From Myxococcales bacterium (GTDB lineage: Bacteria > Myxococcota_A > UBA9042 > JABWCM01 > BTVJ01), in the NCBI GenBank assembly GCA_045863395.1, contig BTVJ01000026.1, forward strand, positions 11,593-75,592: DNA of 64,000 nt, written 5' to 3'. Shown here piece after piece: positions 17,164 through 55,382 of this stretch. Under the pieces are notes generated by a model. The model was not told where the DNA came from. It was given only the letters and a program-made list of their open reading frames with translations, and did not search any database. Every line of letters begins with the position of its first letter. Position 1 is the first letter of the stretch. The translations under genes and the position numbers were made by a program.

Positions 17164-17220
17164 GCCGCCCACGGCACTTGGGTCCACATTGGCAGGCCCC
17201 CGGGCGGGGCGGAGGAGAGC

Positions 17221-17628: not shown

Positions 17629-17637
17629 GGCGACGGC

Positions 17638-19127: not shown

Positions 19128-20023
19128 TGGTCCCCCGCTTTGGCCGGCGCGGCTTCACGATGATCGAGATCCTGGTGGCGGTGGGCCTGCTCGCCGTCAT
19201 GACGGCGATCATCTACCAGGCCTACCGCATCACCATCCGTGCGCAGACGGAGACGGACAAGCTCCAGGAGCGCTACCACACGGCGCGGGTCGCGCTGATG
19301 CACATGACCCGTGAGATCTCCATGGCCTTCCTGTCCAAGCACATCAACGCCGACGAGGGGCGCAGCAAGACGCTGTTCGATGGGGGGCGAGAGAAGCTGA
19401 CGTTCACCTACCTCGGGCACCAGCGACGGGTGAAGGACGTCAAGGAGAGCGATCAGGGGGTCGTCGAGTACTACTTGCGCTCGTGCAAGGACAGCGCGCG
19501 GCCCGGCAAGTGCCTGTTCCGGCGGGGGAAGCCCATCGTCGACGCAGACCCGGAGAAGGGCGGCACGGTGGACGTGCTCGCCGAGGGGGTCAAGAGCCTC
19601 AAGTTCGAGTACTGGGACCGCGAGAAGGAGGACTGGAAGAGCGAGTGGGAGGTCAGCAGCGACGACTTCGAGGTGGCGCCCGGGCAGATGCTCGACGAGG
19701 AGATCACCGACGAAGAGAAGTCCATGCAGCTCCCGTGGAGGGTGAAGATCCGACTCGTGCTGGTCGACGACGACAAGGATGAGCACACCTTCGAGACGCA
19801 GACCGCGCTCATGCTGCGGGAGCCTCTGGACTTCACGCTCGGTGGGGTGGTCACCAACCTTCGCGGGGCCCTCGGTGGCCGCGACGGAGGCGCGCAGCCT
19901 GCCGGCGCCGGGTTTGGGATCCCCGGGCAGCCCGGAGTGCCCGGGCAGCCCGTCCAACCGGCTGGCGGTCATGGCGGAGGCGCTCAGCCCCTGGCGGCGC
20001 CCAACCCGGGTGGGGGGCGGTGA
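19127..20023 (+). CDS. gspJ: Type II secretion minor pseudopilin GspJ-like
   Basis: ATG 19127 overlaps the gspI stop. N-terminus GRRG|FTMIEILVAVGLLAVMTAI. Confidence 0.7.
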   Translation: MVPRFGRRGFTMIEILVAVGLLAVMTAIIYQAYRITIRAQTETDKLQERYHTARVALMHMTREISMAFLSKHINADEGRSKTLFDGGREKLTFTYLGHQRRVKDVKESDQGVVEYYLRSCKDSARPGKCLFRRGKPIVDADPEKGGTVDVLAEGVKSLKFEYWDREKEDWKSEWEVSSDDFEVAPGQMLDEEITDEEKSMQLPWRVKIRLVLVDDDKDEHTFETQTALMLREPLDFTLGGVVTNLRGALGGRDGGAQPAGAGFGIPGQPGVPGQPVQPAGGHGGGAQPLAAPNPGGGR

Positions 20024-21270: not shown

Positions 21271-21324
21271 CGGTCAGGCATGCTCGGGCGGGTGCGTGGC
21301 CACGGGCAGCAGGCAGGGCAGGGC

Positions 21325-23502: not shown

Positions 23503-24146
23503 TGGCGTCCGAGGGAAGGTTCGCCGCATTTGATCGCCTGTCGACCCGCGAGAAGCTGATGGTCGGCGGACTCGGGGCCTTCTTCCTGGTCGGGGTCGTC
23601 CTCGTCGTCGTGTTGGTAGTGAGCAGCTACCTGTCGGGGATCGAGGAGGAGATTGCGGACGCCGAGGAGAAATCCAAGAAGCTCCAGGCGGCGGCCTCGA
23701 CCTACCTGGAGGTGAAGTCCAAGGAGGAGGCCCTGCTCGACCTGCTGCAGAACAACCCCATCGTCAGCCTCCGGATCCCCATCAACAACCTGGCCAAGAG
23801 CGTCACGCTGCCGGACAACACGACCCTGAGCGACGTCATCCGCTTCGAGGGCAAGACGGTGGAGACGCCCATCGCCGCGTTCGGAGACAAGAAGGGCAAG
23901 AAGAAGCCCAAGAAGAAGGGCAAGGGCGAGGAGGACACGGGGCCCCAGACCTTGAAGATCGAGCAGGACTTCGAGTTCCGGGACGTCCCGATCGCGTCGC
24001 TGTTCGACTTTCTGGAGAACATCGAGAAGAGCCCCGACCTGCTGTTCGTGACGAAGCTGGAGATCCGCCGGAAGTTCGGCGACTACGACAAGGCCCAGTC
24101 CGCCTTCGTAACGGTCTCCACGTACAAGCGGACGGGGACGCCATGA
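23502..24146 (+). CDS. gspM: Type II secretion protein GspM-like
   Basis: ATG 23502 overlaps the gspL stop (ATGA). Single N-terminal TM helix (LMVGGLGAFFLVGVVLVVVLVV), about 214 aa, position after gspL. Confidence 0.65.
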   Translation: MASEGRFAAFDRLSTREKLMVGGLGAFFLVGVVLVVVLVVSSYLSGIEEEIADAEEKSKKLQAAASTYLEVKSKEEALLDLLQNNPIVSLRIPINNLAKSVTLPDNTTLSDVIRFEGKTVETPIAAFGDKKGKKKPKKKGKGEEDTGPQTLKIEQDFEFRDVPIASLFDFLENIEKSPDLLFVTKLEIRRKFGDYDKAQSAFVTVSTYKRTGTP

Positions 24147-25879
24147 GCAGCATCTGGAAGACCATCGCCAGGGGCTTCGGCTACCTGATCTTCTTCGTCG
24201 TGGCGCTGGTCTTCTTCGTCTACGTCACCTTCCCCATGGAGCAGGTGCGCGGCTACGTGGAGTACCAGGCGCAGAAGCGCCTGAAGATGGACGTCCGAAT
24301 CGGCGAGCTGGCGCTGAAGGGCCTCGGTGGGGTGGAGCTCTGGGACGTCGTCGTCGTGCTCCCCGAGAAGCCGAAGGAGCCGTCGGCGGCGGAGGAGGCG
24401 GGTGTGACGCGCCCCGGCGGCCCGGCGACCGAGGCGCCGCCAGCCGCTCCGAGGGCGCCGGCCGCGGCGAAGCCGGTCGATGCCGCCAAGGCGGGCGCTA
24501 CGCCCAAGGCGCCCCCCAAGGCGCTCCCCAAGGATGCCGCCGCTTCCGAGGGAGACGCCAAGACGGACAAGAAGCCCAAGGGCCTGCGGGTGAAGATCGA
24601 CCACGTGGACGTCAGCGTCAGTCTCCTCGACGTGCTCTTCGGCAAGGAGCCGGACGTGCGCATCGACGCGGAGCTGCTGGGCGGGTCCATCTCGGACGCT
24701 CACGTCAGGAAGGATGGAAAGAAGATCCGCATCGAGGCCAAGGAGGTGAGCGGCCTCGATCTCACCGCGACGCCGCTGCTCGGCTACGTCGGTCCCTTCG
24801 ACGTGCGGGGCAAGCTGTCCGGGAGCATCGACTTCACCTGGGGCGGGAGCCTGTGGGACAGCGCAGGCACCATCGAGCTGGCCCTGGCCCAGTCGTCCAT
24901 CCGCCAGCCGGAGCTCAAGTCCAAGGCGTACGGGGACTTCAAGCTCACGGACGTCAAGACCGGCGCCCTCGCCGTGAAGGTGGCGGTCGGGAAGAAGGCG
25001 GACATCGCGACGCTGCGCGCGGCCCCCGGCCCCAAGGACGCCACGGTCGTTCACCTGGAGAAGGTGGAGTCGAGCGGCGAAGACGCGGAGCTGGTCACCG
25101 AGGAGCGGAGCGTGTTCGTGCTGCGCAAGGGCAAGCCGTTTGGAGACGCGTCCATGACCGTGGAGATCGCCTTCGCCCTGTCGGAGCCCTTCTTCGAGCG
25201 GGAGGTGGTGCGCCAGGGGGAGAAGGAGAAGCCCAACAAGTTCCTGAAGTACCTCCTCGAGCACGACGCCAAGTGGAAGAAGGCAGAGAAGAACGGGTTC
25301 TATGGCCTCCGGTGCACCGGCGTGGTCAAGCGGCCCGAGTGCCTCCCGGTGCGGCCCACGATGCGCGTGGGCTTTGCGAAGGCGCGCACCGATGGCGGAG
25401 AGGAGCCCGCCAAGGACGCCCCCGAGAAGGGCGACGCGTTGGACACGAAGCGTCCCGAGACGCCGGCGCCGAGCGCCCGCGGGGACCAGCGGGAGCCGGG
25501 GGCGCGACCGACGCTGGGGACGGTGCAGGACCTGCCGCGGGAGCGCCCGACCCAGGTCGAGGCGGAGCCCGTGGATGAAGGGCCGCAGCCGAAGGTGCCG
25601 CGCATCCGCACGCCGGCGACCGGCGTCGACCCCAAGGTGCGCATCGAGCAGCTCAAGGCGGAGCGGGAGCAGCGGCTGCAGGAGATGCGCGCCGCCCGGG
25701 GGCTGCCCCCGGAGCCCGTAGCCGAGCCTCTGCCCGAGGACGCGCCGCTGCCTCTGGACGAGGAGCTGGTCGACGAGGTGCCACTGGACGAAGTGCCTCT
25801 GGATGACGCTCCCCACGTGGAGGGAGCCATCGACGAGCTGCCCTTGGACGAAGACCCCAACTTCGACCCGGACCGCTGA
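24143..25879 (+). CDS. gspN: Type II secretion protein GspN-like with long Pro/Ala/Lys/Glu-rich insert
   Basis: ATG 24143 overlaps the gspM stop. N-terminal TM helix (GYLIFFVVALVFFVYVTF); last gene of the operon. Confidence 0.6.
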   Translation: MSSIWKTIARGFGYLIFFVVALVFFVYVTFPMEQVRGYVEYQAQKRLKMDVRIGELALKGLGGVELWDVVVVLPEKPKEPSAAEEAGVTRPGGPATEAPPAAPRAPAAAKPVDAAKAGATPKAPPKALPKDAAASEGDAKTDKKPKGLRVKIDHVDVSVSLLDVLFGKEPDVRIDAELLGGSISDAHVRKDGKKIRIEAKEVSGLDLTATPLLGYVGPFDVRGKLSGSIDFTWGGSLWDSAGTIELALAQSSIRQPELKSKAYGDFKLTDVKTGALAVKVAVGKKADIATLRAAPGPKDATVVHLEKVESSGEDAELVTEERSVFVLRKGKPFGDASMTVEIAFALSEPFFEREVVRQGEKEKPNKFLKYLLEHDAKWKKAEKNGFYGLRCTGVVKRPECLPVRPTMRVGFAKARTDGGEEPAKDAPEKGDALDTKRPETPAPSARGDQREPGARPTLGTVQDLPRERPTQVEAEPVDEGPQPKVPRIRTPATGVDPKVRIEQLKAEREQRLQEMRAARGLPPEPVAEPLPEDAPLPLDEELVDEVPLDEVPLDDAPHVEGAIDELPLDEDPNFDPDR

Positions 25880-29277: not shown

Positions 29278-31218
29278 ATGAAGGCGATGACGAAAAGGAG
29301 CGTGGTGCGTTGGTGCCTCGCGGCCCTTCTGACCGCGGCATTGGCGGTCGGTGGATGCAAGAAGGACCCGCCCGCCGCGCCTGCCGAGGCGCCCAAGGCG
29401 GGGGAGACCAAGGCGCCTGAGAAGGGCGGTGAGGCCAAGGCCCCCGAGAAGGGCGGCGAGGCCAAGGCCCCCGAGAAGGGCGGCGAGGCCAAGGCCCCCG
29501 AGAAGGCCCCTGACAAGGCCGGCGACGAGCGCCCCGCGGTGCCCGCCACGGTGTCGGTCCCCGATGGAGTGATCCTCTACGGTGGCATCAAGAGCCTCGA
29601 CGATCTGACCGCCCGCATCTCATCCGTCGTCGACAAGGTCAAGCCCATGCCCGGTCTGGGCATGGTGATCACCGGCGCCCTGAGCAAGGAGCTCGGCCTG
29701 TCGAGCATGGACTGGCTCGACACGTCCAAGCCCGCGCGCTTCGCGGTGTGGAACCCGAAGGAGGGCGGCCAGCCGCTGGTGATGGCCTTCCCCATGAAGT
29801 CACGGGAGGCTTTCGAGAAGGCGCTCCCGGAGGCGCGCGAGTCGGGAGCCGAGGGCAACGCGTTCAAGTACCAGGCTGGCATGAAGGACGCCTTCGTGAA
29901 CTTCGCCGGGGACTACGCGCTCCTGGCCCGGGACGCCAAGGCGTATGACCGCCTCAAGGGCTTCGCCGAGGGTGGCCTTGCGGCCTACAAGCCCAACGAC
30001 GCCTTCGAGATCACCATCGCGGTGGGCAACCTGACCCGCATCTTCAGCGACGAGCTCAAGCAGGCTCGCGGCGAGATGGCGAAGCTGATGGCCAGCGACA
30101 TGGCCATGTCACCCTTCGCCGGCTCGGCGGCGAGCATGAACACGCAGATCGATCTGATGTTCGACCTGCTCGACCAGCTCGACCAGGCGACCATCTCTGC
30201 CCGCATCGACGGTGACCACGTCAAGATGCCGTTCGCGCTGAAGGCGAAGGACGGCTCCTCCATGGCGAAGTTCTTCGACGCGACCCGCGACCGCAAGCTG
30301 ACGCTGCTCGACTACGTGCCTGCCGGCTCCTACCTGGTGGTCGGGGCGAGCATGGACCCCGCGGGCTTCGGCGAGTGGAACGAGCTCGGCATGAAGATGA
30401 TCGCGGAGATGTTCAAGCTGACCGGCGAGGAGAAGGCCAAGCTCGACACGCTCATGAAGGGCGCCATGGCGGCGCAGACGGGCGAGTCGGTCTTCGCGCT
30501 CTACAAGGACGGCGCCCTGGCCCTGTCCATGCTCGCGGTCGGCGGTGCGACGGACGGCAAGAAGCTCCGTGACCTGTCCTACGAGATGTATGGCATGCTC
30601 TGGACCAAGGTCGTCGACCTGATCAAGGCCGAGGCCGGCGCCGAGCTGCCCCCGGAGTTCGACCTGTCGAGCTTCAGCAAGGCCATCGAGAGCCTGGCCG
30701 CCGTCGCGGAGCCCCTCGGCGTCACCGTGAAGGTGGCGACCGAGGAGTACAACGGCGCCACCATCGACAGCATCGCGATCACTATCGACTATGCGCGGTT
30801 CCCCCTGGCTCAGGAGGACGCCGAGGCTGCCGCGGTCATGAAGGCCATCGTCGGCGACAAGATCGTGCTTGCGGCAGGCTACGGCAAGGAGCGCTACGGC
30901 ATGGCCATGGGCCCCGACGCGGTCGCGCGGGTCAAGGACGTCGTCGACGGCAAGAAGGGCGCCACGCCGGTCGCCATCAAAACCGCCGTGGAGCACGGGG
31001 TGCCCGGGGCGTCCATGCTGTTCTACCTGTCCGCGGTGGACGGCCTCAAGGCGTTCGCGGCCCTGCCCCAGCTCCAGCCCATGAGCGACACCATCCGCGG
31101 CATGTCTGCGGCGAGCGGCGCGGCGTTCAGCTTCGGCTCGGCGAGCGGCGGTGGCCTGTCCGCGGTCATCGACGTGCCGATGAGCCACGTGCAAGAGGTC
31201 CTGAAGCTCCAGCGCTAG
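29278..31218 (+). CDS. Lipoprotein with KAPEKGGEA tandem repeats, function unknown
   Basis: GGAGG 8 nt before ATG 29278; MKAMTKRSVVRWCLAALLTAALAVGGC (lipobox V-G-G-C). Confidence 0.65.
   Translation: MKAMTKRSVVRWCLAALLTAALAVGGCKKDPPAAPAEAPKAGETKAPEKGGEAKAPEKGGEAKAPEKGGEAKAPEKAPDKAGDERPAVPATVSVPDGVILYGGIKSLDDLTARISSVVDKVKPMPGLGMVITGALSKELGLSSMDWLDTSKPARFAVWNPKEGGQPLVMAFPMKSREAFEKALPEARESGAEGNAFKYQAGMKDAFVNFAGDYALLARDAKAYDRLKGFAEGGLAAYKPNDAFEITIAVGNLTRIFSDELKQARGEMAKLMASDMAMSPFAGSAASMNTQIDLMFDLLDQLDQATISARIDGDHVKMPFALKAKDGSSMAKFFDATRDRKLTLLDYVPAGSYLVVGASMDPAGFGEWNELGMKMIAEMFKLTGEEKAKLDTLMKGAMAAQTGESVFALYKDGALALSMLAVGGATDGKKLRDLSYEMYGMLWTKVVDLIKAEAGAELPPEFDLSSFSKAIESLAAVAEPLGVTVKVATEEYNGATIDSIAITIDYARFPLAQEDAEAAAVMKAIVGDKIVLAAGYGKERYGMAMGPDAVARVKDVVDGKKGATPVAIKTAVEHGVPGASMLFYLSAVDGLKAFAALPQLQPMSDTIRGMSAASGAAFSFGSASGGGLSAVIDVPMSHVQEVLKLQR
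29410..29508 (+). repeat. 27-bp tandem repeat, 3 full copies plus 1 partial, in frame (KAPEKGGEA) inside the lipoprotein gene
   Basis: aaggcgcctgagaagggcggtgaggcc followed by two near-identical copies and a truncated copy. Confidence 0.9.
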
Positions 31219-32074
31219 CCCGCCCCGCCCACCAGACGACCCCCGCCCCGACCAGGGCGGCCAGCGCCACCCACTGGGAGGTCGAGAGCGGCCCCCAGTG
31301 ACCCCGCTGGGCATCCCCCCGAAGCAGCTCGATGAGAAACCGGGCCGTCGCGTACAGGGCGACCCACGCCGCGAGCACCTCGCCGTGGAAGCGCTTGTTC
31401 GCGCGCACGCGCAGGAGCAGGCCGAACAGCAGCAGCTCCACGGCCGCCTCGTAGAGCTGTGTCGGGTGGATCGGGCCTCCGAGGAGCCAGGCCTCCGAGC
31501 CAGGCGGGAACGTCACGCCCCAGGGGAGGTCGGTCCTACAGCCGTAGCAGCAGCCCGCCAGGTAGCACCCGATGCGTCCGAAGACGTGGGCGAGGGCGAC
31601 GCTCGGGACGAGGGTGTCCGAGAGCAGCCCGAAGCCTGCCCGGTGCCGCAGTGAGAAGCGCCACAGGACCAGGGCAGCCGCCGCGACCCCGCCGTAGAAC
31701 ACGAAGCCGCCTCGCCACAGCTCCAGGGCAGCAGTGCAGTTCCGGACGGTCGCGCAGGTGCCGGCGTCGCAGACCTGCAGGTCGGGGCATGCCCCGAGCG
31801 GCGTGCATGGGATTGAGGGCAGCGCATCTTGCGGGTCGAAGCACAGGTCGTAGAAGAACTCCCATCGAACGGCCAGGAACGCGAGGCGCGAGCCGACGAT
31901 GGCGGCCATCATCAGCCAGAACATCAGGTCGATGACCGCCCCGCGGTCGAGGCCGACGCGCGGCGCCTCCCGGCCCGCCACGGAGAGGGCCGCCAGGTAG
32001 CCGAGAGCGATCATCACGCCGTAGGCGGGGAGGACGATCCCGATGCCCGTACCCGCAAGCAGGTCAGGGTGCAT
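31166..32074 (-). CDS. lgt: Prolipoprotein diacylglyceryl transferase Lgt
   Basis: Lgt signature motifs GRIGCYLAGCCYG and HPTQLYEA. Start taken at ATG 32074 (MHPDLLAGTGIGIVLPAYG). Carries a Cys-rich insert (CFDPQDALPSIPCTPLGACPDLQVCDAGTCATVRNC). 3' end overlaps the convergent lipoprotein gene by about 50 nt. Confidence 0.85.
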   Translation of the reverse strand: MHPDLLAGTGIGIVLPAYGVMIALGYLAALSVAGREAPRVGLDRGAVIDLMFWLMMAAIVGSRLAFLAVRWEFFYDLCFDPQDALPSIPCTPLGACPDLQVCDAGTCATVRNCTAALELWRGGFVFYGGVAAAALVLWRFSLRHRAGFGLLSDTLVPSVALAHVFGRIGCYLAGCCYGCRTDLPWGVTFPPGSEAWLLGGPIHPTQLYEAAVELLLFGLLLRVRANKRFHGEVLAAWVALYATARFLIELLRGDAQRGHWGPLSTSQWVALAALVGAGVVWWAGRASAGASGPLARGSSARR

Positions 32075-32193
32075 GGGGGCGACCGGGGGGCCCGGACACG
32101 TCGGGGTGGGAGACGGGGCGGACACTCCGGGCCAGGCGCATGTGCCATGGGTTGGGCAGGTGTCTCACGCCGGGAGAGGACAGCATCTGCGGC

Positions 32194-45488: not shown

Positions 45489-47059
45489 TTCACGCTCGCG
45501 AGCAGGCTCACTCCGAGACGGCTCGGATCCACGAACACGCGGGTGCCGATGCCGTTCTCGTCCTTGCGGATCTGGGCGCGGTCCGGGTCGTAGGTGTAGT
45601 CGACCTGGACCAGCGCCGCGAAGGTGCTCTCGTAGGTCCAGCGCAGGCCGCCGAGCGCGCTGATGATCGGCAGCGCGTCCTCTCCCTCCGGCAGGATGTC
45701 CCAGTCGCCGGGCTCCGTGCCGCGCACCACGACCTTCTGGATGCCCTGGCTTACCTTGGAGTTGTTCTGGCCGGCGGGCATGACGCCCCGGTAGGTGGCG
45801 GGGAGCTGGACCCCGATGCCCACGTAGGGGGTCAGGCCCAGCTCCGTGAACAGGTGGTCGACGGCGATGGTGCCCGAGACCTCGGGGGTGACCTCCGCAG
45901 CCTCCGGGAGCGCCGAGTAGGGGAAGTAGCCGGGCACGTTCGCCGTGATCCAGGTCATGTCGCGGAAGCCGCCGTCCAGGTGGATGCGGGTCTCCTTGAC
46001 CTTGACGCCCACCGACGCGAAGCTCGCCATGGCCAGCTCGGTCTTGGTCGAGCCGGTGAAGTCGAAGTCGGCGAGGGTCTGGGTCTGGAAGCCGAACTCC
46101 GCGGCGATGCGGTAGCTGACGTCGCCATCGTAGGGCTCCGACTCCGTCAGGTCGAAGCGGACGGGGTCCTCGCGGAACAGGTTGAGGTCGAGCCGCCGCC
46201 CCACGGGCGCCCCTCGCGAGAAGGACAACATGGCGCTGGCCCCACCGGCGACAATCGGCTTGCCGAGGACCTCCGCCTTGTTGTTGGTGCCCTTCTCGAA
46301 GACCCCGCCGTTGGCCTCGAGCCACAGGCCGTCCACGCCCAGCTCCACGCCCGCCCCGAAGAGGCCGCCGTAGAAGGTGCGCTCGACGAAGAGGGTCTCG
46401 TTGCCCTCCGAGTTGGCGAGCTTCACCTCGACCGCGCTCTTGATCAGCGCGGTCTTGAGGCCCGCGAAGGCGTAGAAGCCGCCGATGTCCACGCCCACCC
46501 GCGCCGCCGGCGCCGACGTGGTGCGGAAGTTGCGGGGGAACACGTCCGTGCCGCCCCAGGACAGCTCGTAGTGGAAGCCCATGCGCAGGCGGTCCGCGTC
46601 GACGGGGAACAGCTCGATGAAGGCGCTGTCGCCGATGCCTCGCTTGACCTTCTGGCCCGAGAGCAGCTCGCCCGTGGACCCCTGGTGCCGGTCCGGGTCG
46701 CGGTTCCAGAGGAAGTTGAGGCGCATGTATGACGCGTCGTCTCGGATCGTGCCCTTGGCGATGTCGATCTTCAGGTTGATCGCGGCCTCCGGAAGGAAGG
46801 CCTCCGTCAGGTCCAGGGCTTTGTAGAGGCCGATGTGCATGAAGGTGTCGTAGCGGTCCGGCAGCAGACGGTCGATGCTCGGGTCCGGCGTGCCACCGAT
46901 GTAGATGTCCGGGCTCGACTTGCGGTCCTCGCCGGCTCCCCGCAGCACGTTGTCGTCGGAGAACGGGAAGCTGATCTTCGCGTCCAGGTACTCGCCCGCC
47001 ATCGCGGGGGTGGCCATCGCGCCGAGGAGCAGGGCCAGGGTCGTCACGCTACGCTTCAT
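45482..47059 (-). CDS. Outer-membrane beta-barrel protein, function unknown
   Basis: Start ATG 47059 with signal peptide MKRSVTTLALLLGAMATPAMAGE; alternating amphipathic strands; C-terminal …LLASVKF (terminal Phe typical of OMPs). Confidence 0.7.
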   Translation of the reverse strand: MKRSVTTLALLLGAMATPAMAGEYLDAKISFPFSDDNVLRGAGEDRKSSPDIYIGGTPDPSIDRLLPDRYDTFMHIGLYKALDLTEAFLPEAAINLKIDIAKGTIRDDASYMRLNFLWNRDPDRHQGSTGELLSGQKVKRGIGDSAFIELFPVDADRLRMGFHYELSWGGTDVFPRNFRTTSAPAARVGVDIGGFYAFAGLKTALIKSAVEVKLANSEGNETLFVERTFYGGLFGAGVELGVDGLWLEANGGVFEKGTNNKAEVLGKPIVAGGASAMLSFSRGAPVGRRLDLNLFREDPVRFDLTESEPYDGDVSYRIAAEFGFQTQTLADFDFTGSTKTELAMASFASVGVKVKETRIHLDGGFRDMTWITANVPGYFPYSALPEAAEVTPEVSGTIAVDHLFTELGLTPYVGIGVQLPATYRGVMPAGQNNSKVSQGIQKVVVRGTEPGDWDILPEGEDALPIISALGGLRWTYESTFAALVQVDYTYDPDRAQIRKDENGIGTRVFVDPSRLGVSLLASVKF

Positions 47060-48686
47060 CGGTGGTCCCGTCACAGTCGTCGTCCACGCCATTGCCCGGC
47101 TTCTCCGCCGCGCCGGGGTGGACGCCCGGGTTGTTGTCGTTGCAGTCGCCCTGGTCGCCGGTCACGCCGTCGCCGTCGTTGTCGAGGGTCGGGTCCAGCA
47201 CGACGTCGCCGTCGTAGCGTGGGTCCACCACCCAGAACTGGAGGTCGCACTTGGTCTCGTCGGAGCTCTCTCCGCACAGGTAGATGTGCCGCAGCGAGCC
47301 GGTCATCGAGGAGACGCGGCGCGGGGGGCACACGTACTGGAGGAAGCCCTGCTCGGTCGTCTCCTTGGTGCACACGCCGTTCTTGTCCGGCTGCCCCAGG
47401 TAGTCCATGGACAGCGGCAGGAACTTCTCGGCGAGGCCCGTGGAGCCGTAGATCTTCTTCTTTCCGCCGGTCACGCCCGACCACTGGGAGTACTCGAAGT
47501 AGCCCTCCAGGTCGGCGCAATAGGGGTCGTCCTGGCACTCGCCCCGGCAGGTGTTCTCGTCGCCCTTGTCGATGAGGCCGTTGTTGTTGCGGTCGCAGGC
47601 GATGAACCGGGTCGCGACCTCCACGTCGCTGAACCGCACCAGGTTGGACTCCAGGGCCTCCAGATAGCGGCTGTTGGCGTACACGTTGGTCAGGTACTCG
47701 ACCTGGTTCGCCACCAGCTCGCTCTTCAGGTCGGCCGTGACGGCAATCGGGGCTGGAGGCTCCGCGTCGACGTCGATGCCCGGGGTCTTCGGGTTGCAGG
47801 TGTCGCTTCCCTCCCAGAGGTCGTCGTAGCTCGGGAAGGTGAGCTGCGTCATGCCCACGTGCTCGTCCACGGCTCCCGAGACCTGGCAGATGATGTCGCC
47901 GTACTCGATGAAGCGGGGCTTGGAGTAGGTGAACACGAACAGGCCGTTGAAGTAGCGGTCCTGTGCCTGATCGTCCAGGTCCACCACGTAGAAGCCGTTG
48001 GCCACCACGTTCACCACGACGAGGCGCCCCGCGTCCACGACGACCTGCTGGCCCTCCAGCGGGGAGGTGTGCAGCTTGCTCGTGAGCTGGATGTCGCGGA
48101 TGCGCGGGTTCTGGAACCACAGGGTCTCGGTCGTCCCGGTGGCGAACGTCGCCTTGGCCTCCTGGTCGTCGTCCACCGACAGGCAGCCCGGGTCTGCGAG
48201 GTCCACGAGGCCGTTTCCGTCGTTGTCCAGCCCGTCGTTGCACTGGCCGTACTTCGCCGCCTTGGGGAAGAAGCCGTCCTGCTCGATCCAGACGTGGGAC
48301 TCGCCGATGGCGCGGTTCACGAAGATCTCCAGGCCCTTGGCCTTGCCGCCCTTCACGAGGTGCCAGGACGTGGACGGCGCCACCCGCCCCGGGGTGATCC
48401 GCGCCCGCACCATGCCAGTGAACGGGAAGTGCTTGCCGTCGCGCCCCATGGCCGCCACGTCGACCACGACCCTCACGTGGCACTCGCCGTCGACACAGAC
48501 CTCGCCGTCCTCGCAGTCCGGGTCGCCGCTGCAGGGCTTGCCGCTGACGAACGGGAGGCGGTCCTTGGCGGTGCCGGCGGTGCCGGGAGTCAGGGACACC
48601 TGAAAGGACTGGAGCCCCTGGTCCAGGGCGTACTCGCTGGTGCACCCGGCGAGCAGCGCGAGCGCGACGGTGATGGAGCGTGCCAC
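47049..48686 (-). CDS. Lipoprotein with C-terminal DGDG/DDDC putative metal-binding motif
   Basis: GTG start 48686, 1 nt after the upstream gene stop; MARSITVALALLAGC (lipobox L-A-G-C); C-terminus DGDGVTGDQGDCNDNNPGVHPGAAEKPGNGVDDDCDGTTDEA. 3' end overlaps the OMP gene start by about 11 nt. Confidence 0.7.
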   Translation of the reverse strand: MARSITVALALLAGCTSEYALDQGLQSFQVSLTPGTAGTAKDRLPFVSGKPCSGDPDCEDGEVCVDGECHVRVVVDVAAMGRDGKHFPFTGMVRARITPGRVAPSTSWHLVKGGKAKGLEIFVNRAIGESHVWIEQDGFFPKAAKYGQCNDGLDNDGNGLVDLADPGCLSVDDDQEAKATFATGTTETLWFQNPRIRDIQLTSKLHTSPLEGQQVVVDAGRLVVVNVVANGFYVVDLDDQAQDRYFNGLFVFTYSKPRFIEYGDIICQVSGAVDEHVGMTQLTFPSYDDLWEGSDTCNPKTPGIDVDAEPPAPIAVTADLKSELVANQVEYLTNVYANSRYLEALESNLVRFSDVEVATRFIACDRNNNGLIDKGDENTCRGECQDDPYCADLEGYFEYSQWSGVTGGKKKIYGSTGLAEKFLPLSMDYLGQPDKNGVCTKETTEQGFLQYVCPPRRVSSMTGSLRHIYLCGESSDETKCDLQFWVVDPRYDGDVVLDPTLDNDGDGVTGDQGDCNDNNPGVHPGAAEKPGNGVDDDCDGTTDEA

Positions 48687-48687
48687 G

Positions 48688-51318
48688 TCAGCCCTCCGGC
48701 TCGTCCGGGTCGAGGTCGGGAGGCAGGTCCTCCAGGTTGGGCGGGAGGATGCGGCTGATCCGCGCGTCCGACTCGGCGCGCGGGCAGGGGAGCGTCGTGC
48801 ACTCGGTGTGCGCCTGCCACTCCACGTCCAGGTAGCACGCGGTCTCCCGGTCCGTCAGCGTGTAGCAGTCCCGGGGCATGCACCTCCCCTCGAAGCAGAG
48901 GCTGTAGGCGGGGCAGTCCTCGTTGCCGTCGCACAGCGCCCGGCAGCGCCCCTGCACGCACTGGGAGACCGGCGCGACGCAGAGGCCCCTTGCGCACACG
49001 TCGCCGCCTCCACAGTGCGCGTCCTCGCTGCACGGAGCGCAGCGCCCCTTGGCGCCCGGCTCGGCGCACCAGCCGTGGACGCACGCCTGCCCCGCGCCGC
49101 AGCCCTTCGTGGTGGTGCACTTGGTGCGCTTCGGCTCGCAGAAGCCGTTCCTGCACAGGGCGTCGAGCCCCTTGGCCACGCAGTCGGCGTTCTGCTTGCA
49201 GGTCGGCAGCGTGCCGAAGCAGGCGCGCACGCTGTCGGTACACTCGCCGTCCGCCTCACACGGGGTGGCGGTCGCCGGCAGACAGAACCCGCTGGAGTCG
49301 GTCTCGGCGAGCTTCACGCAGGCGTTCTGGCCCTTGGCGGCCTTGCTGGCGTGGCAGTCGCCGTCGCCCTGGCAGCGGTTGCGGCACCGGCCGAGCACAC
49401 AGGTGTAGGCGGGGGTCACGCAGACGCCCTGAAAACACTCCTGGCCGTCGCCGCACTCGAGGGAGTGGGTGCACGCCTTGCACTTGCCCCCGGCGCAGGC
49501 CGCGTCGAGGCGGTAGCAGTCCCCGTCGCCCTTGCACTGGCCGTCGTCCACCGCGCAGTGGTAGGGCGTCGTCAGCTCGCCGGGCGTCGTCTCGGCGATG
49601 TGCTCGCAGAACTGCCCCCGGTACTTGACCAGCGACTCCATGCAGGCGCCGTAGGTCGTACACCCCTCGAGCTGCACCTGGCCGTCCACGCGGCAGTCGT
49701 CGATGCAGCGCTGGGAGCGGATGATCTCCTCCTGCACCGCGTCGCGCAGCGGCACCCCCGAGTCCACCTGGGTGTTGTTGATCTTGAGCACCGTGAAGCC
49801 CGACCCGCCCCCGGCGATGTAGTTGTTGGTGGCCATCTCGTAGACGCCGTAGGGGTTGATGGGCGTCTCCTGGCACAGCGTCTTGTCCTTGATGTTGGAG
49901 TCACCGCAGTTGGTGATCACGACGTTCTCGGCGCGTGGCGGGCACTCGTCGCCGCAGTTGTCGCCCTCCTTCGGGAAGGTGCAGTTCATGGTGAAGCGCA
50001 GGCCCGCCACCTGGACCTGCGTGATGCAGCCGCGCCCCGCGCTGCGCCGCGTGGTGTAGTCCAGCAGGTCCTGGATGTCCTTGCCGCTCATGTACATGGT
50101 CGTGATCGTGTTCTCGAAGGGGAACACGTTGAAGAGGTCGTCCATGGTGATGGGGCCGGGGAAGATGTCGGTGCGGATTCCGAGCGTGTTCGTCAGCCCG
50201 AAGTCGGCCCAGGCGTGCTTGCGGATGGCCTCGGCCACGAAGTTGCCGAGGGGGGCGTCTCCGCCGTCGAAGCCGAAGCGGCGGATGTGGCGGTCCGCGA
50301 AGCCGTAGACGCTGGTCAGGTCGAAGATCTGGTTCATCTTCAGCCGGTACGGCTCCAGGAGGTCGAGCATGACCGGATCCTCGGGCACCGAGCTGTCGAT
50401 GGGGAAGATGGCGTAGTCGTGGTTGACCACCTCGCCGTCCCGGACGACGACGTCCAGGCGCGCGACGAACTTGGCGAAGGCGCCCGGGTGGGTCAGGATC
50501 ACGCTGCGGCCGGCCTTGTCCTTGATGACCTTCGGCGGGTTGAGGACGATGTGCAGGTGTCCGCCGAGGATGATGTCGAGGCCCTCGGTGTGCTGGATGA
50601 TCTCCTCGTCCTCGCCGAGGCCCGCGTGGCTGACGGCGACGATCAGATCCACCTGGGGGCGGAGCACGTTGATCCAGTCCTGCACGGTCTGGACGATGTC
50701 CAGCGGGACGATCTTGAGGCTGTTGCCGACTTCGGTCACCGACGAGATGGACGAAAAGTTGGCGATGCCGATGATCGCGATCTTCAGGCCGTCCTTGTTG
50801 ACGATCTCGACCGGGCGCACCAGGTCGTTCAGGGGGTTCCCCTTGATGAACAAGTAGTTGGCGGCGATCACCGGGTACGTGGCCCACGCCTTGAGCTGCT
50901 TCGCGTAGTTCGTGAGCCCCTCGTCGAACTCGTGGTTGCCGATGACCACGGCGTCCGGTTGGAGCTGGCTCATGACCCGCTGCTCCACCTCGCCCTTGAA
51001 GGCATTGAAGATCGGTGCGCCCTGGAAACAGTCGCCGCTGTCGACGAGGACGACGCGGCCCCCCCGCGCGCGCTCCCGCTTGATGACGTGCGCCATGCGC
51101 GCCGCCCCGCCGAAGGGCTCGTTGTCCTGGAGCAGGCCCATGCCCTCGTCACCAGCGCCGACCTGAGCGCGGTAGGGAATCAGGCGAGAGTGGATGTCGG
51201 AGGTGTGCAGGAAGGTGACGCGGATATCCTGGCCCGCGAGGGTCGGGTTCTCGTGTCGCTCCGTACAGGCCGCGAGAAGGGTTGTGATGGCTATAACCAG
51301 GCGAAACCATTGAGTCAT
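48688..51318 (-). CDS. Bifunctional metallophosphatase/5'-nucleotidase-like lipoprotein with long C-terminal Cys-rich domain
   Basis: GAGGGA RBS before ATG 51318; MTQWFRLVIAITTLLAAC (lipobox); metallophosphatase motifs FLHTSDIHSRL, VDSGDCFQGAP, GNHEFD, SHAGLGEDEE, GGHLH; 5'-nucleotidase C-domain; then about 350 aa with more than 50 Cys. Confidence 0.85.
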   Translation of the reverse strand: MTQWFRLVIAITTLLAACTERHENPTLAGQDIRVTFLHTSDIHSRLIPYRAQVGAGDEGMGLLQDNEPFGGAARMAHVIKRERARGGRVVLVDSGDCFQGAPIFNAFKGEVEQRVMSQLQPDAVVIGNHEFDEGLTNYAKQLKAWATYPVIAANYLFIKGNPLNDLVRPVEIVNKDGLKIAIIGIANFSSISSVTEVGNSLKIVPLDIVQTVQDWINVLRPQVDLIVAVSHAGLGEDEEIIQHTEGLDIILGGHLHIVLNPPKVIKDKAGRSVILTHPGAFAKFVARLDVVVRDGEVVNHDYAIFPIDSSVPEDPVMLDLLEPYRLKMNQIFDLTSVYGFADRHIRRFGFDGGDAPLGNFVAEAIRKHAWADFGLTNTLGIRTDIFPGPITMDDLFNVFPFENTITTMYMSGKDIQDLLDYTTRRSAGRGCITQVQVAGLRFTMNCTFPKEGDNCGDECPPRAENVVITNCGDSNIKDKTLCQETPINPYGVYEMATNNYIAGGGSGFTVLKINNTQVDSGVPLRDAVQEEIIRSQRCIDDCRVDGQVQLEGCTTYGACMESLVKYRGQFCEHIAETTPGELTTPYHCAVDDGQCKGDGDCYRLDAACAGGKCKACTHSLECGDGQECFQGVCVTPAYTCVLGRCRNRCQGDGDCHASKAAKGQNACVKLAETDSSGFCLPATATPCEADGECTDSVRACFGTLPTCKQNADCVAKGLDALCRNGFCEPKRTKCTTTKGCGAGQACVHGWCAEPGAKGRCAPCSEDAHCGGGDVCARGLCVAPVSQCVQGRCRALCDGNEDCPAYSLCFEGRCMPRDCYTLTDRETACYLDVEWQAHTECTTLPCPRAESDARISRILPPNLEDLPPDLDPDEPEG

Positions 51319-51541
51319 CGCGCACCGTCCCTCGTTGGCCCGCCGGCCCGGCGCAACAGGTATCACACGCCCACCCCCCGATCAAGCCGTGGCGCCCAAG
51401 GGGGTGAACGTAACCCGCGCGCAGATCGCGGGATGTGGGGCCGGGCGACGTGGGTTGAACCGGCGTTCGCGCTCTGGAATACTGTCGCGCGGTCCCGCGC
51501 GGGGACCTGCCGCCCACGCCCCAACTCTCCTCGGAGGCCTC

Positions 51542-52123
51542 ATGCTCCCCCGCAGAGCCATACTCTTGATGCTGCTGCTGCTTGCAGCGCCCGCGCGCGC
51601 CACCGTCGTCCTCGAGGTAGGCCTCGACGACATGAGCCGCACCTCGGACGTGATCTTCCACGGCGTCGTGACCCGGACCGACGTCGTTGCCGTCGGCGGG
51701 GACGCCACGCGACTCGTAACCGACGTCACCTTCTCGCTGACCGAGGTGCTCAAGGGGCGGGCGCTCGTGCCGGAGCCGAGCTTCACGCTCCGGCTGATCG
51801 GGGGGCAACGGGGCGGGCTCGAGCTGCGCATCCCTGGGATGCCGCGCTTCAGTGAAGGGGACGAGGTCGTCATGTTCCTGGAGCGCACCGAGGGAGGCTT
51901 CGCCATCACGGGTCTGTCCCAGGGGCGCTTCGAGGTGCGCGTCGATGCTGAGACCGGCGAGCGGGTGGTCGACCGGTCGCTCGGAAGCGTGGGGGTGGCG
52001 CGGTTCGGTGCGGGCGGCGAGTTCGAGATGACAGAGGCGCCGGCCAGCCTGGTGCGCTACCCCCTTGCGAACCTGCTCGACGAGGTGCGCCACTGGATCG
52101 CCGAGGACGGGGTGGCCCGATGA
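51542..52123 (+). CDS. Secreted hypothetical protein
   Basis: GGAGG RBS before ATG 51542; signal peptide MLPRRAILLMLLLLAAPARA; stop overlaps the next ATG. Confidence 0.5.
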   Translation: MLPRRAILLMLLLLAAPARATVVLEVGLDDMSRTSDVIFHGVVTRTDVVAVGGDATRLVTDVTFSLTEVLKGRALVPEPSFTLRLIGGQRGGLELRIPGMPRFSEGDEVVMFLERTEGGFAITGLSQGRFEVRVDAETGERVVDRSLGSVGVARFGAGGEFEMTEAPASLVRYPLANLLDEVRHWIAEDGVAR

Positions 52124-54222
52124 AGCGCGCCCTCCTGATCGTGTCGGGCCTGCTGCTCTGGGCGCCTGCTGCCTCCGCGTCCAGCATCGCCCTGTCGGAC
52201 TACTACAACAAGCTCGTCCGGTGGACCATCTCGACGGTCCCGTACCACCTGAACCCCGCCGGCTCCGACGACATCGGGGACGGCAGCGACATCCAGGCCA
52301 TCAAGGAGTCGTTCAACGACTGGATCACGCTCCCGTGCTCGTCGCTGAAGATCAACCACCTGGGGGCCGCCGGCAACACGAGCCTGCTGACGGGTGCTCA
52401 GGCCAACGGCAAGAACGAGCTCCACTTCGTGGAGAACTCGGCCTGGACCTATGGCAAGTACGTGCTGGGCGTGACCGCGCCGCTCTACGACTACAACGGC
52501 AAGATCTGGGAGTCGGACATCGCGTTCAACGGCTACCTCCAGTCCTGGTCCACGACGGGCGGGTGGGGCAAGACCGACGTGAAGGCCATCGCGATCCACG
52601 AGATCGGGCACTTCTTCGGGATCCAGCACAACCTGGGCGGCTACTCCTCCTCGTCGCCGCCGACCATGGCGCCGTCGTGGGACGGGACGCTGAAGCAGCG
52701 GACCCTGGAGCAGGACGACAAGAACTCGTTCTGCTTCCTCTACAACAACGCCAACTACACCTGCGGCACCGACGCGGACTGTCCCTACGTGGTGGGCCAC
52801 AAGTCCAACGGGCAGGAGTACTACACAGGGAAGTACGTGTGCAGCGGGGGCAAGTGCCAGCTCGGGTCGGGCTCGGGGACGGCCGGCGGCACCAAGGGGC
52901 TCGGCGAGAAGTGCAGCACGAACCAGGACTGCAAGTCACCCTACTTCTGTCAGCCCGTGTGGGGGCAGGGGAGCATGTGCTCGCAGGTGTGCAACCCGAG
53001 CTCCAGCACGAGCTGCCCGGGCGGCTTCGTGTGCGTCCCCTACGAGGGTCAGAGCTCGGGGGCGTGCATCCCCGGCGGGCCGACCACCAAGAGCGACGGG
53101 GCCGCATGTGAGGCGTCGAGCGAGTGCAAGTCGGGTTACTGCGGGACCAACCCCGTGGACGGCTCGTTGGAGTGCCGCCAGACCTGCACCGTCGGCGAGG
53201 CGGGGCACTGCACCAAGAGCCAGGTGTGCGTACCGTCCCACGGCAGCGCGTCCTCGGCGGGAGCCTGCTGGGGTGTGGATGACGTGGGGGCGGTCAACCG
53301 CGCTGACACGGATGGCTGCGACTTCGACTGGCAGTGCAAGAGCGGGCGATGCGTGCTCGACCAGGCGAGCGGGGAGCAGTTCTGCCGCGCGGCGTGCAGC
53401 CCGGCGCACCCGAGCTGCGCCGCCGGGACGTGGTGCGTCGAGCTGTCGCCGCAGGTGGGCGCCTGCATCCCTGGTTCTCCGCCTCCGCCCCCCGAGAAGC
53501 TCGAGGACGGGGCGATCTGCGCTACGAACGAGGAGTGCAAGAGCGGCGTCTGCGCCAAGCCCGCCGGGGGCACACGCACCGTGTGCGTCACGCCTTGCGC
53601 GCTCGCGGACGACGCGTGCCCCGCAGGTCAGGTGTGCGTCGGCTCTGGCGACGCGGTCTGGGGCGCTTGCCTGCCGGCGGCGCTCCCCGCGGGCGCGTCC
53701 TGTGGGGGACCTCAGGACTGCAGCAGCGGGCTGTGTCTCGATTCGGGCAGCGGGTCCGTCTGCGTCCAGGCCTGCTCGGAAGGGGGTGTCTGCCCCTGCG
53801 GGACGAGCTGCCAGTTCGCGGTAGGTGGCGACGTCTGCGTGCCCGACGCCACGGCGCCGACCTGCGCGGCGGCGGGCGTGCAGTGCGCGAGCAACCTGGA
53901 GTGCGGGAGCGGGCGGTGCCAGGGCGGGGAGTGCAGCGGCGAGGCTGGTGGCTCGGGTGGCTCGGGTGGGTCGGGTGGGTCGGATGCTGCGAGTGGCCCT
54001 GGCGGCGGCTCCGGCAGTGGCTCCGGTGATGCCGCGGGCGGAGCAGGCGGCGACGCAGCGGGCGGCGGAGTCGAGGCGCCAGGAGGCGTCGGCGGGGAGG
54101 CAGACCTCAGCGGCAGCGCAGCCGGCGGCGGCTGCGGGGCGACCAGCGGCCCGGGCGGCGGCCTGCTGGCGATGCTCGCGTTGCTCGGTTGGCTGACCGT
54201 TCGCCGGCGCGTGGCCGCCTGA
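52120..54222 (+). CDS. Secreted matrixin-like zinc metalloprotease (M10 family) with Cys-rich repeat region and MYXO-CTERM-like sorting tail
   Basis: Signal peptide MKRALLIVSGLLLWAPAASA; zinc motif HEIGHFFGIQH (HExxHxxGxxH); repeated Cys-rich units (CxSGxC…); Gly/Ser-rich spacer; C-terminus GGGCGATSGPGGGLLAMLALLGWLTVRRRVAA. Confidence 0.85.
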   Translation: MKRALLIVSGLLLWAPAASASSIALSDYYNKLVRWTISTVPYHLNPAGSDDIGDGSDIQAIKESFNDWITLPCSSLKINHLGAAGNTSLLTGAQANGKNELHFVENSAWTYGKYVLGVTAPLYDYNGKIWESDIAFNGYLQSWSTTGGWGKTDVKAIAIHEIGHFFGIQHNLGGYSSSSPPTMAPSWDGTLKQRTLEQDDKNSFCFLYNNANYTCGTDADCPYVVGHKSNGQEYYTGKYVCSGGKCQLGSGSGTAGGTKGLGEKCSTNQDCKSPYFCQPVWGQGSMCSQVCNPSSSTSCPGGFVCVPYEGQSSGACIPGGPTTKSDGAACEASSECKSGYCGTNPVDGSLECRQTCTVGEAGHCTKSQVCVPSHGSASSAGACWGVDDVGAVNRADTDGCDFDWQCKSGRCVLDQASGEQFCRAACSPAHPSCAAGTWCVELSPQVGACIPGSPPPPPEKLEDGAICATNEECKSGVCAKPAGGTRTVCVTPCALADDACPAGQVCVGSGDAVWGACLPAALPAGASCGGPQDCSSGLCLDSGSGSVCVQACSEGGVCPCGTSCQFAVGGDVCVPDATAPTCAAAGVQCASNLECGSGRCQGGECSGEAGGSGGSGGSGGSDAASGPGGGSGSGSGDAAGGAGGDAAGGGVEAPGGVGGEADLSGSAAGGGCGATSGPGGGLLAMLALLGWLTVRRRVAA

Positions 54223-54368
54223 CCTCCGTGTGAGCGCCGGGGGGGGCGCGGGGGGAGAGCTTCACCCTGGACTTGGGGCGGCATGGACTTCGACGCTCGA
54301 CCGCGGTAAGACTGGGGCGCCCGCTGGCGCTCCACCCTTACCGGGGCGCGGCGCGGCGGAGGTCCTTC

Positions 54369-55382
54369 ATGCAGAGCGCGTCCGAGCGAGACAGTATCCT
54401 CCGGTGGTCGCCAGGGTCGCCTCGTGGCCACGTGGAGTCCACCTTCCTCAAGCTGAACCTGGTGTCGCGGCGGCAGGCGCTCTGGCTCAAGTTCACCGTC
54501 TTGGAGCCACCTCCTGGTCACGGCGACGCGCAGGCCGCCGTGTGGGCGATCTTCTTCGACGTGGACCACCCGGAGCGCCGGCGCGCCGTCAAGCGCGTGA
54601 TGCCCGCGTCCGACATCTCCTGGCAGGCTGACCGATTCCTGCTGCGCTTCGGCGACTGCGAGATGGCCCGCGGTCGCAGCCATGGGAGCGTCTCTGGGGC
54701 GGGGAGCATCGCCTGGGACCTGACGTGGACCACGGGCGAGGAGAGCTTCCGGCACTTTCCTCACGACCGCATGTACGAGCTGCCCCTCCCTCGCTCCAAG
54801 GCTCTCAGCCCCACCATCGACGCGCGCTTCCAGGGCACGGTGACCGTCGACGGTGAGCGCATCGAGGTGGTCGAGGCGCCCGGGATGCACGGCCACAACT
54901 GGGGGGAGAACCACGCGCGGGAGTGGGTCTGGGCCCACTGCAACGCGTTCGCGGAGGACGGCGTCGTCTTCGAGGGACTCAGCGCGCGCGTCGCGCTGGG
55001 TCCCATCACGACACCAGCGCTGACCATACTGCACCTCAGGACCCCAGTGGAGACGGTGACGTTCAACCGGCTGCGGGATCTCGTAGCCAGCGCGAGCCGC
55101 CAGCACGGGCTGTACTGGAGCTTCGAGGCGACCGGGGGGCCCTGGCGCCTTCGTGGCGTCGTCCACGGGAGCCCTGACCGCTTCGTGGGCGTCGACTACC
55201 ACGACCCGGACGGCACAGTGCACCACTGCCTGAACTCCAAGGTCGCCGTCGCGGAGCTGACCCTGCTGCGTCGTCACGGCGCGACATGGTCCCCTTACGG
55301 CCAGTGGCGCAGCGACGACTCCTGCGCGCTGGAGATCGGGACCTGCGGCGACACCCACGGCGTCCCCATCCTGCTCCCCTGA
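54369..55382 (+). CDS. Hypothetical protein
   Basis: ATG 54369 (MQSASERDSILRW…); balanced composition; no family recognised with confidence. Confidence 0.5.
   Translation: MQSASERDSILRWSPGSPRGHVESTFLKLNLVSRRQALWLKFTVLEPPPGHGDAQAAVWAIFFDVDHPERRRAVKRVMPASDISWQADRFLLRFGDCEMARGRSHGSVSGAGSIAWDLTWTTGEESFRHFPHDRMYELPLPRSKALSPTIDARFQGTVTVDGERIEVVEAPGMHGHNWGENHAREWVWAHCNAFAEDGVVFEGLSARVALGPITTPALTILHLRTPVETVTFNRLRDLVASASRQHGLYWSFEATGGPWRLRGVVHGSPDRFVGVDYHDPDGTVHHCLNSKVAVAELTLLRRHGATWSPYGQWRSDDSCALEIGTCGDTHGVPILLP

Follow-up and report, generated by a model that had tools for sequence, protein, structure and literature searches.

How does a bacterium that exports a matrixin-like protease without a prodomain keep that enzyme harmless in its own periplasm? 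The question is raised by a locus in a 64,000-nucleotide stretch of Myxococcales DNA (assembly GCA_045863395.1, contig BTVJ01000026.1, positions 11,593 to 75,592 of the forward strand), called the window here. In this locus, the gene of a secreted M10 protease (52120..54222) overlaps the end of a smaller gene (51542..52123) whose predicted secreted product we call the partner. An earlier note on this DNA had described the protease; the coupled partner gene, absent from that note, is a more informative part of the locus than the protease alone. What is chiefly new here is that a protein predicted, from a structural model, to have an NTR/TIMP fold is coupled to an M10 protease in a gene pair that is widespread. 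We think it moderately likely that the partner is a periplasmic latency factor or inhibitor of the coupled protease, within a two-gene operon whose protease is sorted by a MYXO-CTERM tail.

Linkage of the partner gene to the protease gene

The two genes form a two-gene operon. They share the four nucleotides ATGA at their junction, an overlap indicating translational coupling, and the same 4-nt overlap recurs in many related loci. With a family profile hidden Markov model (HMM), a partner was found next to the protease gene, on the same strand, in 49 of the 73 protease loci with enough upstream sequence, the gap between the genes usually being -4 to +60 nt. Loci with a partner come from Myxococcota, Acidobacteriota, Verrucomicrobiota, Planctomycetota (Planctomycetaceae), Latescibacterota and Bdellovibrionota bins; the proteases of the Acidobacteriota, Verrucomicrobia, Planctomycetaceae, Latescibacterota and Bdellovibrionota bins have no MYXO-CTERM tail. 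The linkage also holds in reverse: each of ten partner homologues, 26-44% identical to the window partner, has a PF00413 gene immediately downstream with a 1-4 nt overlap, and the C-terminal accessory domains of these downstream genes vary. Finally, a natural fusion of 707 aa (P0191) joins two partner domains (residues 87-218 and 233-350; E 1e-27 and 2.6e-24) to an M10 domain (430-561) followed by a C-terminal extension. This linkage is independent of the fold assigned to the partner.

The partner family is very large, has no Pfam or NCBIfam model, carries only 'hypothetical protein' names, and combines a predicted TIMP/NTR fold with systematic coupling to M10 genes across phyla. An exhaustive search of 1.84 billion cluster representatives with the partner HMM gave 25,455 matches at E<=1e-3, of which 14,774 remain under the stricter limit of E<=1e-10. 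Among the best 150 matches, 149 are single-domain proteins of 152-286 aa, and none of 120 listed relatives contains a Pfam domain. The window partner itself is not recognised by Pfam or NCBIfam and is 100% identical to GMV41266.1 in NCBI, a hypothetical protein from a Myxococcales metagenome-assembled genome (MAG). On the protease side, a first homologue search returned 15 relatives, and a genome scan then revealed a family common in MAGs: at least 87 loci with catalytic-domain relatives (one genome per species), nearly all from uncultured Myxococcota, to which the closest loci belong as well. The locus search used a 7-sequence alignment, the 16-sequence alignment being too diverse for this use. 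In the closest locus (L001) the protease is 62% identical and three upstream genes are shared as well.

The partner is predicted to enter the periplasm as a soluble protein. Among 42 partner sequences, Ala occupies position -3 before the predicted cleavage site in 34 and position -1 in 39, and none has a lipobox Cys; the AxA site together with the missing lipobox therefore predicts cleavage by signal peptidase I and a soluble periplasmic product. Conservation continues into the predicted mature N-terminus, which has the consensus [T/M]-T-V-L in these 42 sequences (T in 26 and M in 10 at position 1, T in 34 at position 2, V in 38 at position 3 and L in 29 at position 4). In a 26-sequence alignment A20 is invariant and T21 is conserved at 90% or more. 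The mature protein is predicted to fold as an NTR-type OB-fold beta-barrel that matches the animal TIMP inhibitors, and two different structure-comparison methods place NTR/TIMP domains above generic OB folds for the model. As modelled, the partner is TIMP-like in fold and is not a member of the TIMP family.

Several related loci depart from the simple pair. Acidobacteriota-type loci carry a third open reading frame (ORF) of 171-210 aa just upstream of the partner, with a 4-nt overlap with the partner start in four of five cases; three translated examples contain a lipobox Cys and a Gly-rich linker. Its identity as a partner paralogue was rejected, there being no match to the partner HMM, and it may be a lineage-specific third component. 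A Woesearchaeota archaeon bin (L065, JAHFLT010000015.1, 7225-12512) encodes a partner with a 1560-aa M10-like protein, reflecting either mis-binning or a transfer between domains of life. In L060 (7890-9841) the order is reversed, with the partner downstream of the protease. In L057 (2102-4765) the partner frame runs on in frame from the MYXO-CTERM-like tail of the protease, in the order …GCGCS…LLRRRR, a second signal peptide, ATVIA….

The protease and its predicted route to the cell surface

The reading frame proposed in the earlier note stands as called, with an ATG start and 700 codons plus a stop. It is the true coding frame: GC content at third codon positions (GC3) reaches 0.91 over the whole gene and 0.97 in its first 230 codons, against 0.52-0.69 for the overlapping frames. 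Gene callers predict the identical 700-aa gene on 4 public contigs; the exact 700-aa sequence is absent from the protein collection that was searched. A promoter and terminator scan over 51200-54500 returned nothing useful, and an Rfam search of the whole window gave no match.

HMM support for the matrixin-like M10 identity claimed earlier comes from PF00413, which scores 26.3 bits against a cut-off of 24, a marginal match covering model positions 84-158 of 159. The same identity emerges from more distant comparisons. A profile of the close protease family (7-sequence alignment) searched against 177,635 PDB sequences matched solely matrix metalloproteinases (MMPs) and karilysin, with a best E of 1.6e-6, and its alignment to MMPs takes in the N-terminal 'W..Y...AF..W' block, the zinc site and the Met-turn while leaving the S-loop unaligned. 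For an AlphaFold2 (AF2) model of residues 1-249 (pLDDT 85.6, pTM 0.85), the 50 highest-ranking PDB chains in Foldseek comprise nothing but MMP catalytic domains and karilysin (8b2q_A among them), at target TM values of 0.70-0.78 except for two full-length MMP-1 chains and at 17-23% identity for the catalytic-domain chains. The HEIGHFFGIQH metzincin signature singled out in the earlier note is an extended HExxHxxGxxH motif that, with its catalytic Glu, is invariant in 16 homologues; the full invariant set across them is D133, N137, H160, E161, G163, H164, G167, H170, M183 and P185. Because the zinc-site and Met-turn residues are invariant in homologues and all catalytic residues (H160, E161, H164, H170, M183) are present, the protease should be active.

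This enzyme is a non-canonical matrixin, without a cysteine-switch prodomain, a Ser after the third His or conserved structural-zinc ligands. No prodomain or PRCGxPD cysteine switch precedes the catalytic domain, which directly follows the signal peptide (first strand at residues 22-25, first conserved Trp at W35), and C73 and C205 are the only Cys before position 215. The matrixin subfamily signature places a Ser directly after the third zinc-binding His. The window protease has Asn171 there, at a variable position where family members carry N, M, V, Y, P, A or S. Only the three catalytic His are invariant in the family and, since no His outside this triad is conserved, the S-loop site for structural zinc, which is built from three His and one Asp, is probably absent. 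The invariant D133 and N137 might form a Ca site. The best NCBIfam match is NF041905 (E 1.2e-14, residues 108-214), to which the protease is a relative and not a member, because its 54 bits fall under the 250-bit cut-off of this equivalog, the only curated family of matrixin-like proteases that depend on myxosortase.

The Cys-rich repeats reported earlier can now be described as five tandem 8-Cys modules spanning residues 258-575, with a half-module at either end; the Cys-rich region holds 51 of the 53 Cys of the protein. Module spacing is C-x5-C-x4/5-C-x8-10-C-x3-C-x5-7-C-x5-C-x8-12-C, the last module being irregular, and most modules begin G-x-x-C-x3-[ED]-C-[KS]-S-G-x-C. An HMM built from the five modules detects 1-9 copies in 59 relatives, and module copy number is therefore variable. 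No Pfam or NCBIfam family scores above threshold on the modules, Dickkopf_N, colipase, Lustrin_cystein, DUF7107 and TIGR04201 having been rejected on sub-threshold scores, and a PDB sequence search with the modules found no relative. Identity with the Cys-rich C-terminus of a neighbouring 5'-nucleotidase was likewise rejected because the modules differ; blastp matches between the two, obtained with composition correction off, probably reflect Cys/Gly bias.

The C-terminal sequence, GGGCGATSGPGGGLLAMLALLGWLTVRRRVAA, also bears out the MYXO-CTERM-like tail proposed before, and both curated models of the sorting motif are passed. TIGR03382 (cut-off 15.85) gives 17.9 bits in the whole protease, at residues 671-697, and 23.7-25 bits on the isolated tail; TIGR03901, the canonical MYXO-CTERM model (cut-off 20), gives 21.2-21.7 bits on the isolated tail. 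By definition, a MYXO-CTERM protein starts with a signal peptide and has a three-part tail made up of a signature motif that holds the invariant Cys, a membrane-spanning helix and a cluster of Arg (PMC11980579). The tripartite layout is present as G671-C672, the helix LLAMLALLGWLTV and RRR695-697, three residues before the stop, with MKRALLIVSGLLLWAPAASA as the predicted N-terminal signal peptide. This tail is the sole one of its kind in the window. Among protease relatives extracted from genomes (480-885 aa, 23-83 Cys), 41 match the tail pattern and most others look similar by eye (Cys/hydrophobic/Arg). The zinc motif and the Met-turn, like the tail, come back in dozens of relatives, and none of these features is a chance resemblance.

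In the published pathway, Sec export is followed by anchoring of the protein in the inner membrane through the tail helix during folding; the invariant Cys is lipidated, a step for which Lgt is the foremost candidate; MrtX, a myxosortase and CPBP protease, cuts the tail, as established experimentally for TraA; and the system for type II secretion (T2SS) carries the folded protein to the surface (PMC11980579). By analogy with these sorting steps, taken from the Myxococcus xanthus literature, the window protease would be anchored at the cell surface, as the earlier note had supposed. It would leave the cytoplasm through Sec and be held in the inner membrane by its tail while folding, Cys672 would then be lipidated before a myxosortase removed the transmembrane helix, and the T2SS would move the folded enzyme outward. 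At the surface, the five disulfide-rich modules and the flexible Gly/Ser linker could keep the lipid-anchored enzyme off the membrane. The window also contains a complete-looking T2SS cluster (10945-23502, plus strand), which may share the window with the protease (~30 kb apart) by coincidence. The lgt gene in the window is a housekeeping gene, and its presence there proves nothing.

Zinc-dependent metalloprotease (ZnMc) domain proteins are among the 35 MYXO-CTERM proteins of M. xanthus according to a supplementary table legend (Table S1, PMC11980579), so a protease joined to such a tail is a known architecture. Taken alone, the window protease is one more member of the known MYXO-CTERM-anchored hydrolases of Myxococcota. 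With the myxosortase-dependent metalloproteases of M. xanthus (MXAN_2677/MXAN_2678 of NF041905 and the ZnMc MYXO-CTERM proteins) it has in common a signal peptide, a metzincin domain, the tail and a Myxococcota host; it differs from the NF041905 family in scoring under the equivalog cut-off and in its five-fold 8-Cys array, which matches no curated model.

What the partner may do

We propose that the partner, translated first and coupled to the protease through ATGA, acts as a soluble periplasmic protein of NTR/TIMP-type OB fold that would bind the catalytic domain at about 1:1 and hold the protease latent in the periplasm until export. It may work in a TIMP-like manner, with the conserved mature N-terminus as the wedge; partner-protease binding, inhibition and the N-terminal wedge are all predictions. 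An inhibitory function is plausible, and we give it somewhat more credence than doubt. We favour a latency factor because the protease lacks a prodomain and would fold while tethered before export, a situation that a co-translated inhibitor would fit, and because the potempins and AprI/Inh offer precedents.

Bacterial MMP-like enzymes are known mainly from karilysin. In Tannerella forsythia this MMP-fold protease is paired with potempin A (PotA; PDB 8b2q), and the window protease finds it in 4th place when searched by fold and in 3rd place when searched by sequence profile. The karilysin inhibitor comes from a short ORF upstream, co-transcribed with the protease gene; the stop codon of this ORF either overlaps the start of the protease gene or is at most 5 bp away. 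This inhibitor protects the cell's own surface proteins, and the potempins as a group inhibit karilysin and other proteases (PMC9890683). The window partner has the layout of such a co-encoded inhibitor, being small, secreted, co-oriented with the protease gene, adjoining it and overlapping it. The molecules themselves differ: potempins are outer-membrane lipoproteins of 98-132 residues, whereas the partner is predicted to be a soluble NTR/TIMP-fold protein of 173 residues; PotA inhibits by a bilobal mechanism and not by an N-terminal wedge; and karilysin carries a prodomain and, at its C-terminus, a domain for type IX secretion, whereas the window protease has a MYXO-CTERM tail and a predicted T2SS route. 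AprA/AprI of Pseudomonas and Inh of Erwinia and Serratia likewise set a Gram-negative metzincin beside a small, soluble periplasmic inhibitor with a signal peptide that protects the cell before export, and the AprI-type inhibitor reaches with its N-terminus into the active site of the protease, in a manner resembling TIMP (PMC8235301). Here too the parts differ, because AprI/Inh is an eight-stranded beta-barrel of ~100 residues and AprA is an M10B protease with RTX repeats and type I secretion, a subfamily other than that of the window protease. That the operon is a variant on this known theme, a protease with a co-encoded inhibitor, seems to us reasonably likely.

A number of observations weigh against an inhibitory partner of TIMP-like fold. 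The partner model is of moderate quality (pLDDT 71, pTM 0.66, 7 sequences), its N-terminal segment falls below pLDDT 50, and its Foldseek E-values are modest, at 6e-4 and weaker. Pfam gives no TIMP/NTR sequence link for the partner, a PDB profile search with it produced chance matches only, and hhalign against N-TIMP-1 (a sequence checked as identical to 1d2b_A) returned a probability of 3%. Sequence homology between partner and TIMP is not supported by these insignificant PDB profile and hhalign results, and the register that places T21 opposite Cys1 carries no weight. The window partner has zero Cys, and no Cys is conserved across 42 homologues; the partner therefore lacks both hallmarks of a TIMP N-domain, Cys1-x-Cys3 and the three disulfides by which the inhibitory ridge is stapled (PMC9409782). 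The second partner domain of the P0191 fusion keeps the conserved [T/M]-T-V-L-type motif without a free N-terminus, which argues against an obligatory alpha-amino zinc ligand. The NTR fold also occurs in non-inhibitory binding roles, for example in agrin NtA and in PCOLCE. In Listeria monocytogenes, Tim is cleaved by Mtz rather than shown to inhibit it (PMC8235301). Among related proteases, 24 of 73 have no nearby partner and also no prodomain, so a cis-encoded inhibitor is not required for the protease family. Nor does this contrast support the partner as a substitute for the missing prodomain: partner-less proteases likewise have no N-terminal extension (median HExxH position 168.5 without a partner and 171 with one). 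On the sorting side, no myxosortase or CPBP-family gene was found in the 64-kb window, whose ORFs with several predicted membrane passes encode GspF, Lgt and two further proteins, one of the sulfatase family and one of the CNNM family.

Among the other roles that we weighed, the partner might instead assist the protease, as a folding chaperone acting in trans, as a periplasmic escort or T2SS pilot, or as an exosite or substrate-recruiting enhancer comparable to the PCOLCE NTR domain with BMP-1. We regard such a helper as a less probable, though serious, candidate: the 24 partner-less proteases seem able to fold and work with no partner gene beside them, and strict conservation right after the signal-peptide cut is typical of inhibitors that depend on their N-terminus. 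Chaperoning and inhibition are also compatible, many prodomains doing both. A substrate or pro-factor, as proposed for Listeria Tim, would be cleaved by the protease to free an active TIMP-like fragment with an effect of its own. Mtz-Tim is the sole experimentally studied bacterial metzincin/TIMP-like pair in the literature that we searched (PMC8235301) and is conserved as a pair across many Gram-positive bacteria (PMC8235301). Listeria Tim, however, is a prophage-associated lipoprotein, encoded downstream of mtz with a CI/Cro switch, whose fold was called with Phyre2 (PMC8235301) and from which an N-terminal stretch of ~50 residues is removed; the window partner has no lipobox or N-terminal extension and is encoded upstream. 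A search for a link to phage-borne Mtz-Tim found none: in 50,697 phage records, tblastn detected neither the partner nor the catalytic core. A pro-factor role is thus, in our judgement, most unlikely.

That the protease acts alone at the surface, beside an unrelated upstream ORF whose TIMP-like fold is an artefact of a mediocre OB-fold model, is hard to reconcile with a linkage seen in 49 of 73 loci, in ten of ten reverse cases, in 1-4 nt overlaps across phyla and in a natural fusion, and with the agreement of the two structure-comparison methods; we give this explanation very little weight. The remaining alternative concerns the protease, which could be active and shed as a soluble extracellular or predatory enzyme, the tail and disordered linker being a transient inner-membrane tether. 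A 65-residue Gly/Ser/Ala linker directly before the tail would suit such release. Both curated models, however, recognise the tail, most relatives retain its Cys, and anchoring in M. xanthus was lost only on tail removal (PMC11980579), which makes shedding quite improbable. A periplasmic inhibitor of a surface-anchored protease is thus the reading that we prefer.

The comparison with animal MMPs and TIMPs (MEROPS M10A and I35) invites a broader and doubtful proposal. The cysteine-free partner could be a true distant TIMP/NTR homologue that uses the same N-terminal wedge, the matrixin-fold protease and NTR/TIMP-fold regulator being an ancient, widespread bacterial operon module from which the metazoan MMP/TIMP system descends or with which it shares its origin; we consider this improbable. 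No sequence homology is detectable, and the partner has neither Cys1-x-Cys3 nor the disulfides. Compared with animal MMPs, the window protease has no cysteine-switch prodomain, hemopexin domain or conserved structural-zinc ligands. The window genes form an operon, and the partner is a putative inhibitor.

In the literature that we searched, which left out most subscription-journal papers, TIMPs and the NTR module count as families of metazoans (PMC4860685, PMC9409782, PMC10755359), papers on TIMP evolution consider metazoans only, no description of the Gram-negative partner family was found, and the sole bacterial TIMP-like record is the Gram-positive, prophage-linked Listeria case, whose authors found no earlier record of bacterial TIMP-like proteins (PMC8235301). 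If the partner does inhibit, it could provide a general answer to how prodomain-less bacterial matrixins stay harmless in the periplasm before T2SS export, supply disulfide-free TIMP-like scaffolds for protein engineering, and make the origin of the MMP/TIMP partnership directly testable.

Feature positions and neighbouring genes

Table 1. Features of the operon, of the export genes and of related loci. Positions refer to the window unless a related locus is named.
Feature	Position	Strand	Basis
Shine-Dalgarno GGAGG, 4 nt 5' of partner ATG	51533..51537	+	read from sequence
Partner gene, 193 aa, secreted, zero Cys, predicted NTR/TIMP-type OB fold	51542..52123	+	
Partner residues 1-20 (...PARA), predicted signal peptide with AxA site for signal peptidase I, next residue T21	51542..51601	+	rule-based prediction
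Predicted mature partner N-terminus TVVL	51602..51613	+	conservation after cleavage site
ATGA overlap, partner TGA / protease ATG	52120..52123	+	read from sequence
Protease gene	52120..54222	+	ATG start, 700 aa + stop
Predicted protease signal peptide, residues 1-20	52120..52179	+	sequence inspection; region hydrophobic in all homologues
Matrixin-like catalytic domain, residues ~21-210	52180..52749	+	PF00413, AF2/Foldseek, PDB profile
Zinc motif HEIGHFFGIQH, residues 160-170 (H160, E161, H164, H170)	52597..52629	+	invariant in 16/16 aligned homologues
Met-turn PPTMAP, residues 180-185 (M183, P185 invariant)	52657..52674	+	homologue alignment
Cys-rich region, residues 205-605, 51 Cys	52732..53934	+	sequence; module HMM
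Gly/Ser/Ala-rich low-complexity linker, residues 606-670 (65 residues)	53935..54129	+	sequence composition
MYXO-CTERM signal, residues 671-697: GCGATSGPGGG, hydrophobic helix, RRR; then VAA, stop	54130..54222	+	TIGR03382, TIGR03901
GspD secretin	10945-14031	+	
GspE ATPase	14032-15834	+	
GspF	15859-17163	+	
GspG pseudopilin	17164-17628	+	
Second pseudopilin	17629-18303	+	
GspK-like gene	19783-21270	+	
PilM/GspL-like gene	21271-23502	+	
Lgt, prolipoprotein diacylglyceryl transferase	31166-32164	-	PF01790, 175 bits
Third ORF upstream of partner, L085	2917-3504		
Third ORF upstream of partner, L087	2872-3504		
Third ORF upstream of partner, L088	2884-3462		
Third ORF upstream of partner, L092	1989-2504		
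Third ORF upstream of partner, L093	1896-2504		

Two genes for Cys-rich secreted proteins (47049-51366, minus strand) adjoin the operon in divergent orientation. One encodes a 5'-nucleotidase/metallophosphatase of 892 aa, which has 55 Cys in all, a C-terminal region of ~300 aa that is rich in Cys, and a weak DUF7107 match; the other encodes a MopE-like protein (PF11617 on public contigs). The Cys modules of both are unlike those of the protease, and synteny of the nucleotidase gene extends to just 5 related loci. Directly after the protease lies a tocopherol-cyclase-like gene (54273-55382, plus strand; PF14249, 29.9 bits), which is kept downstream in 7 related loci.

Farther away, just past the T2SS cluster, two long ORFs on opposite strands overlap at 23534-25879, one of 781 aa (plus) and one of 598 aa (minus). 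Their GC3 is intermediate, and the 781-aa plus-strand ORF has no Pfam match. Near the start of the window, a gene at 1959-3935 (plus strand) encodes a 658-aa subtilase-family (PF00082) peptidase and lies in the only low-GC patch (GC 0.595 at 2001-4000, against ~0.69 elsewhere); it may have been horizontally acquired.

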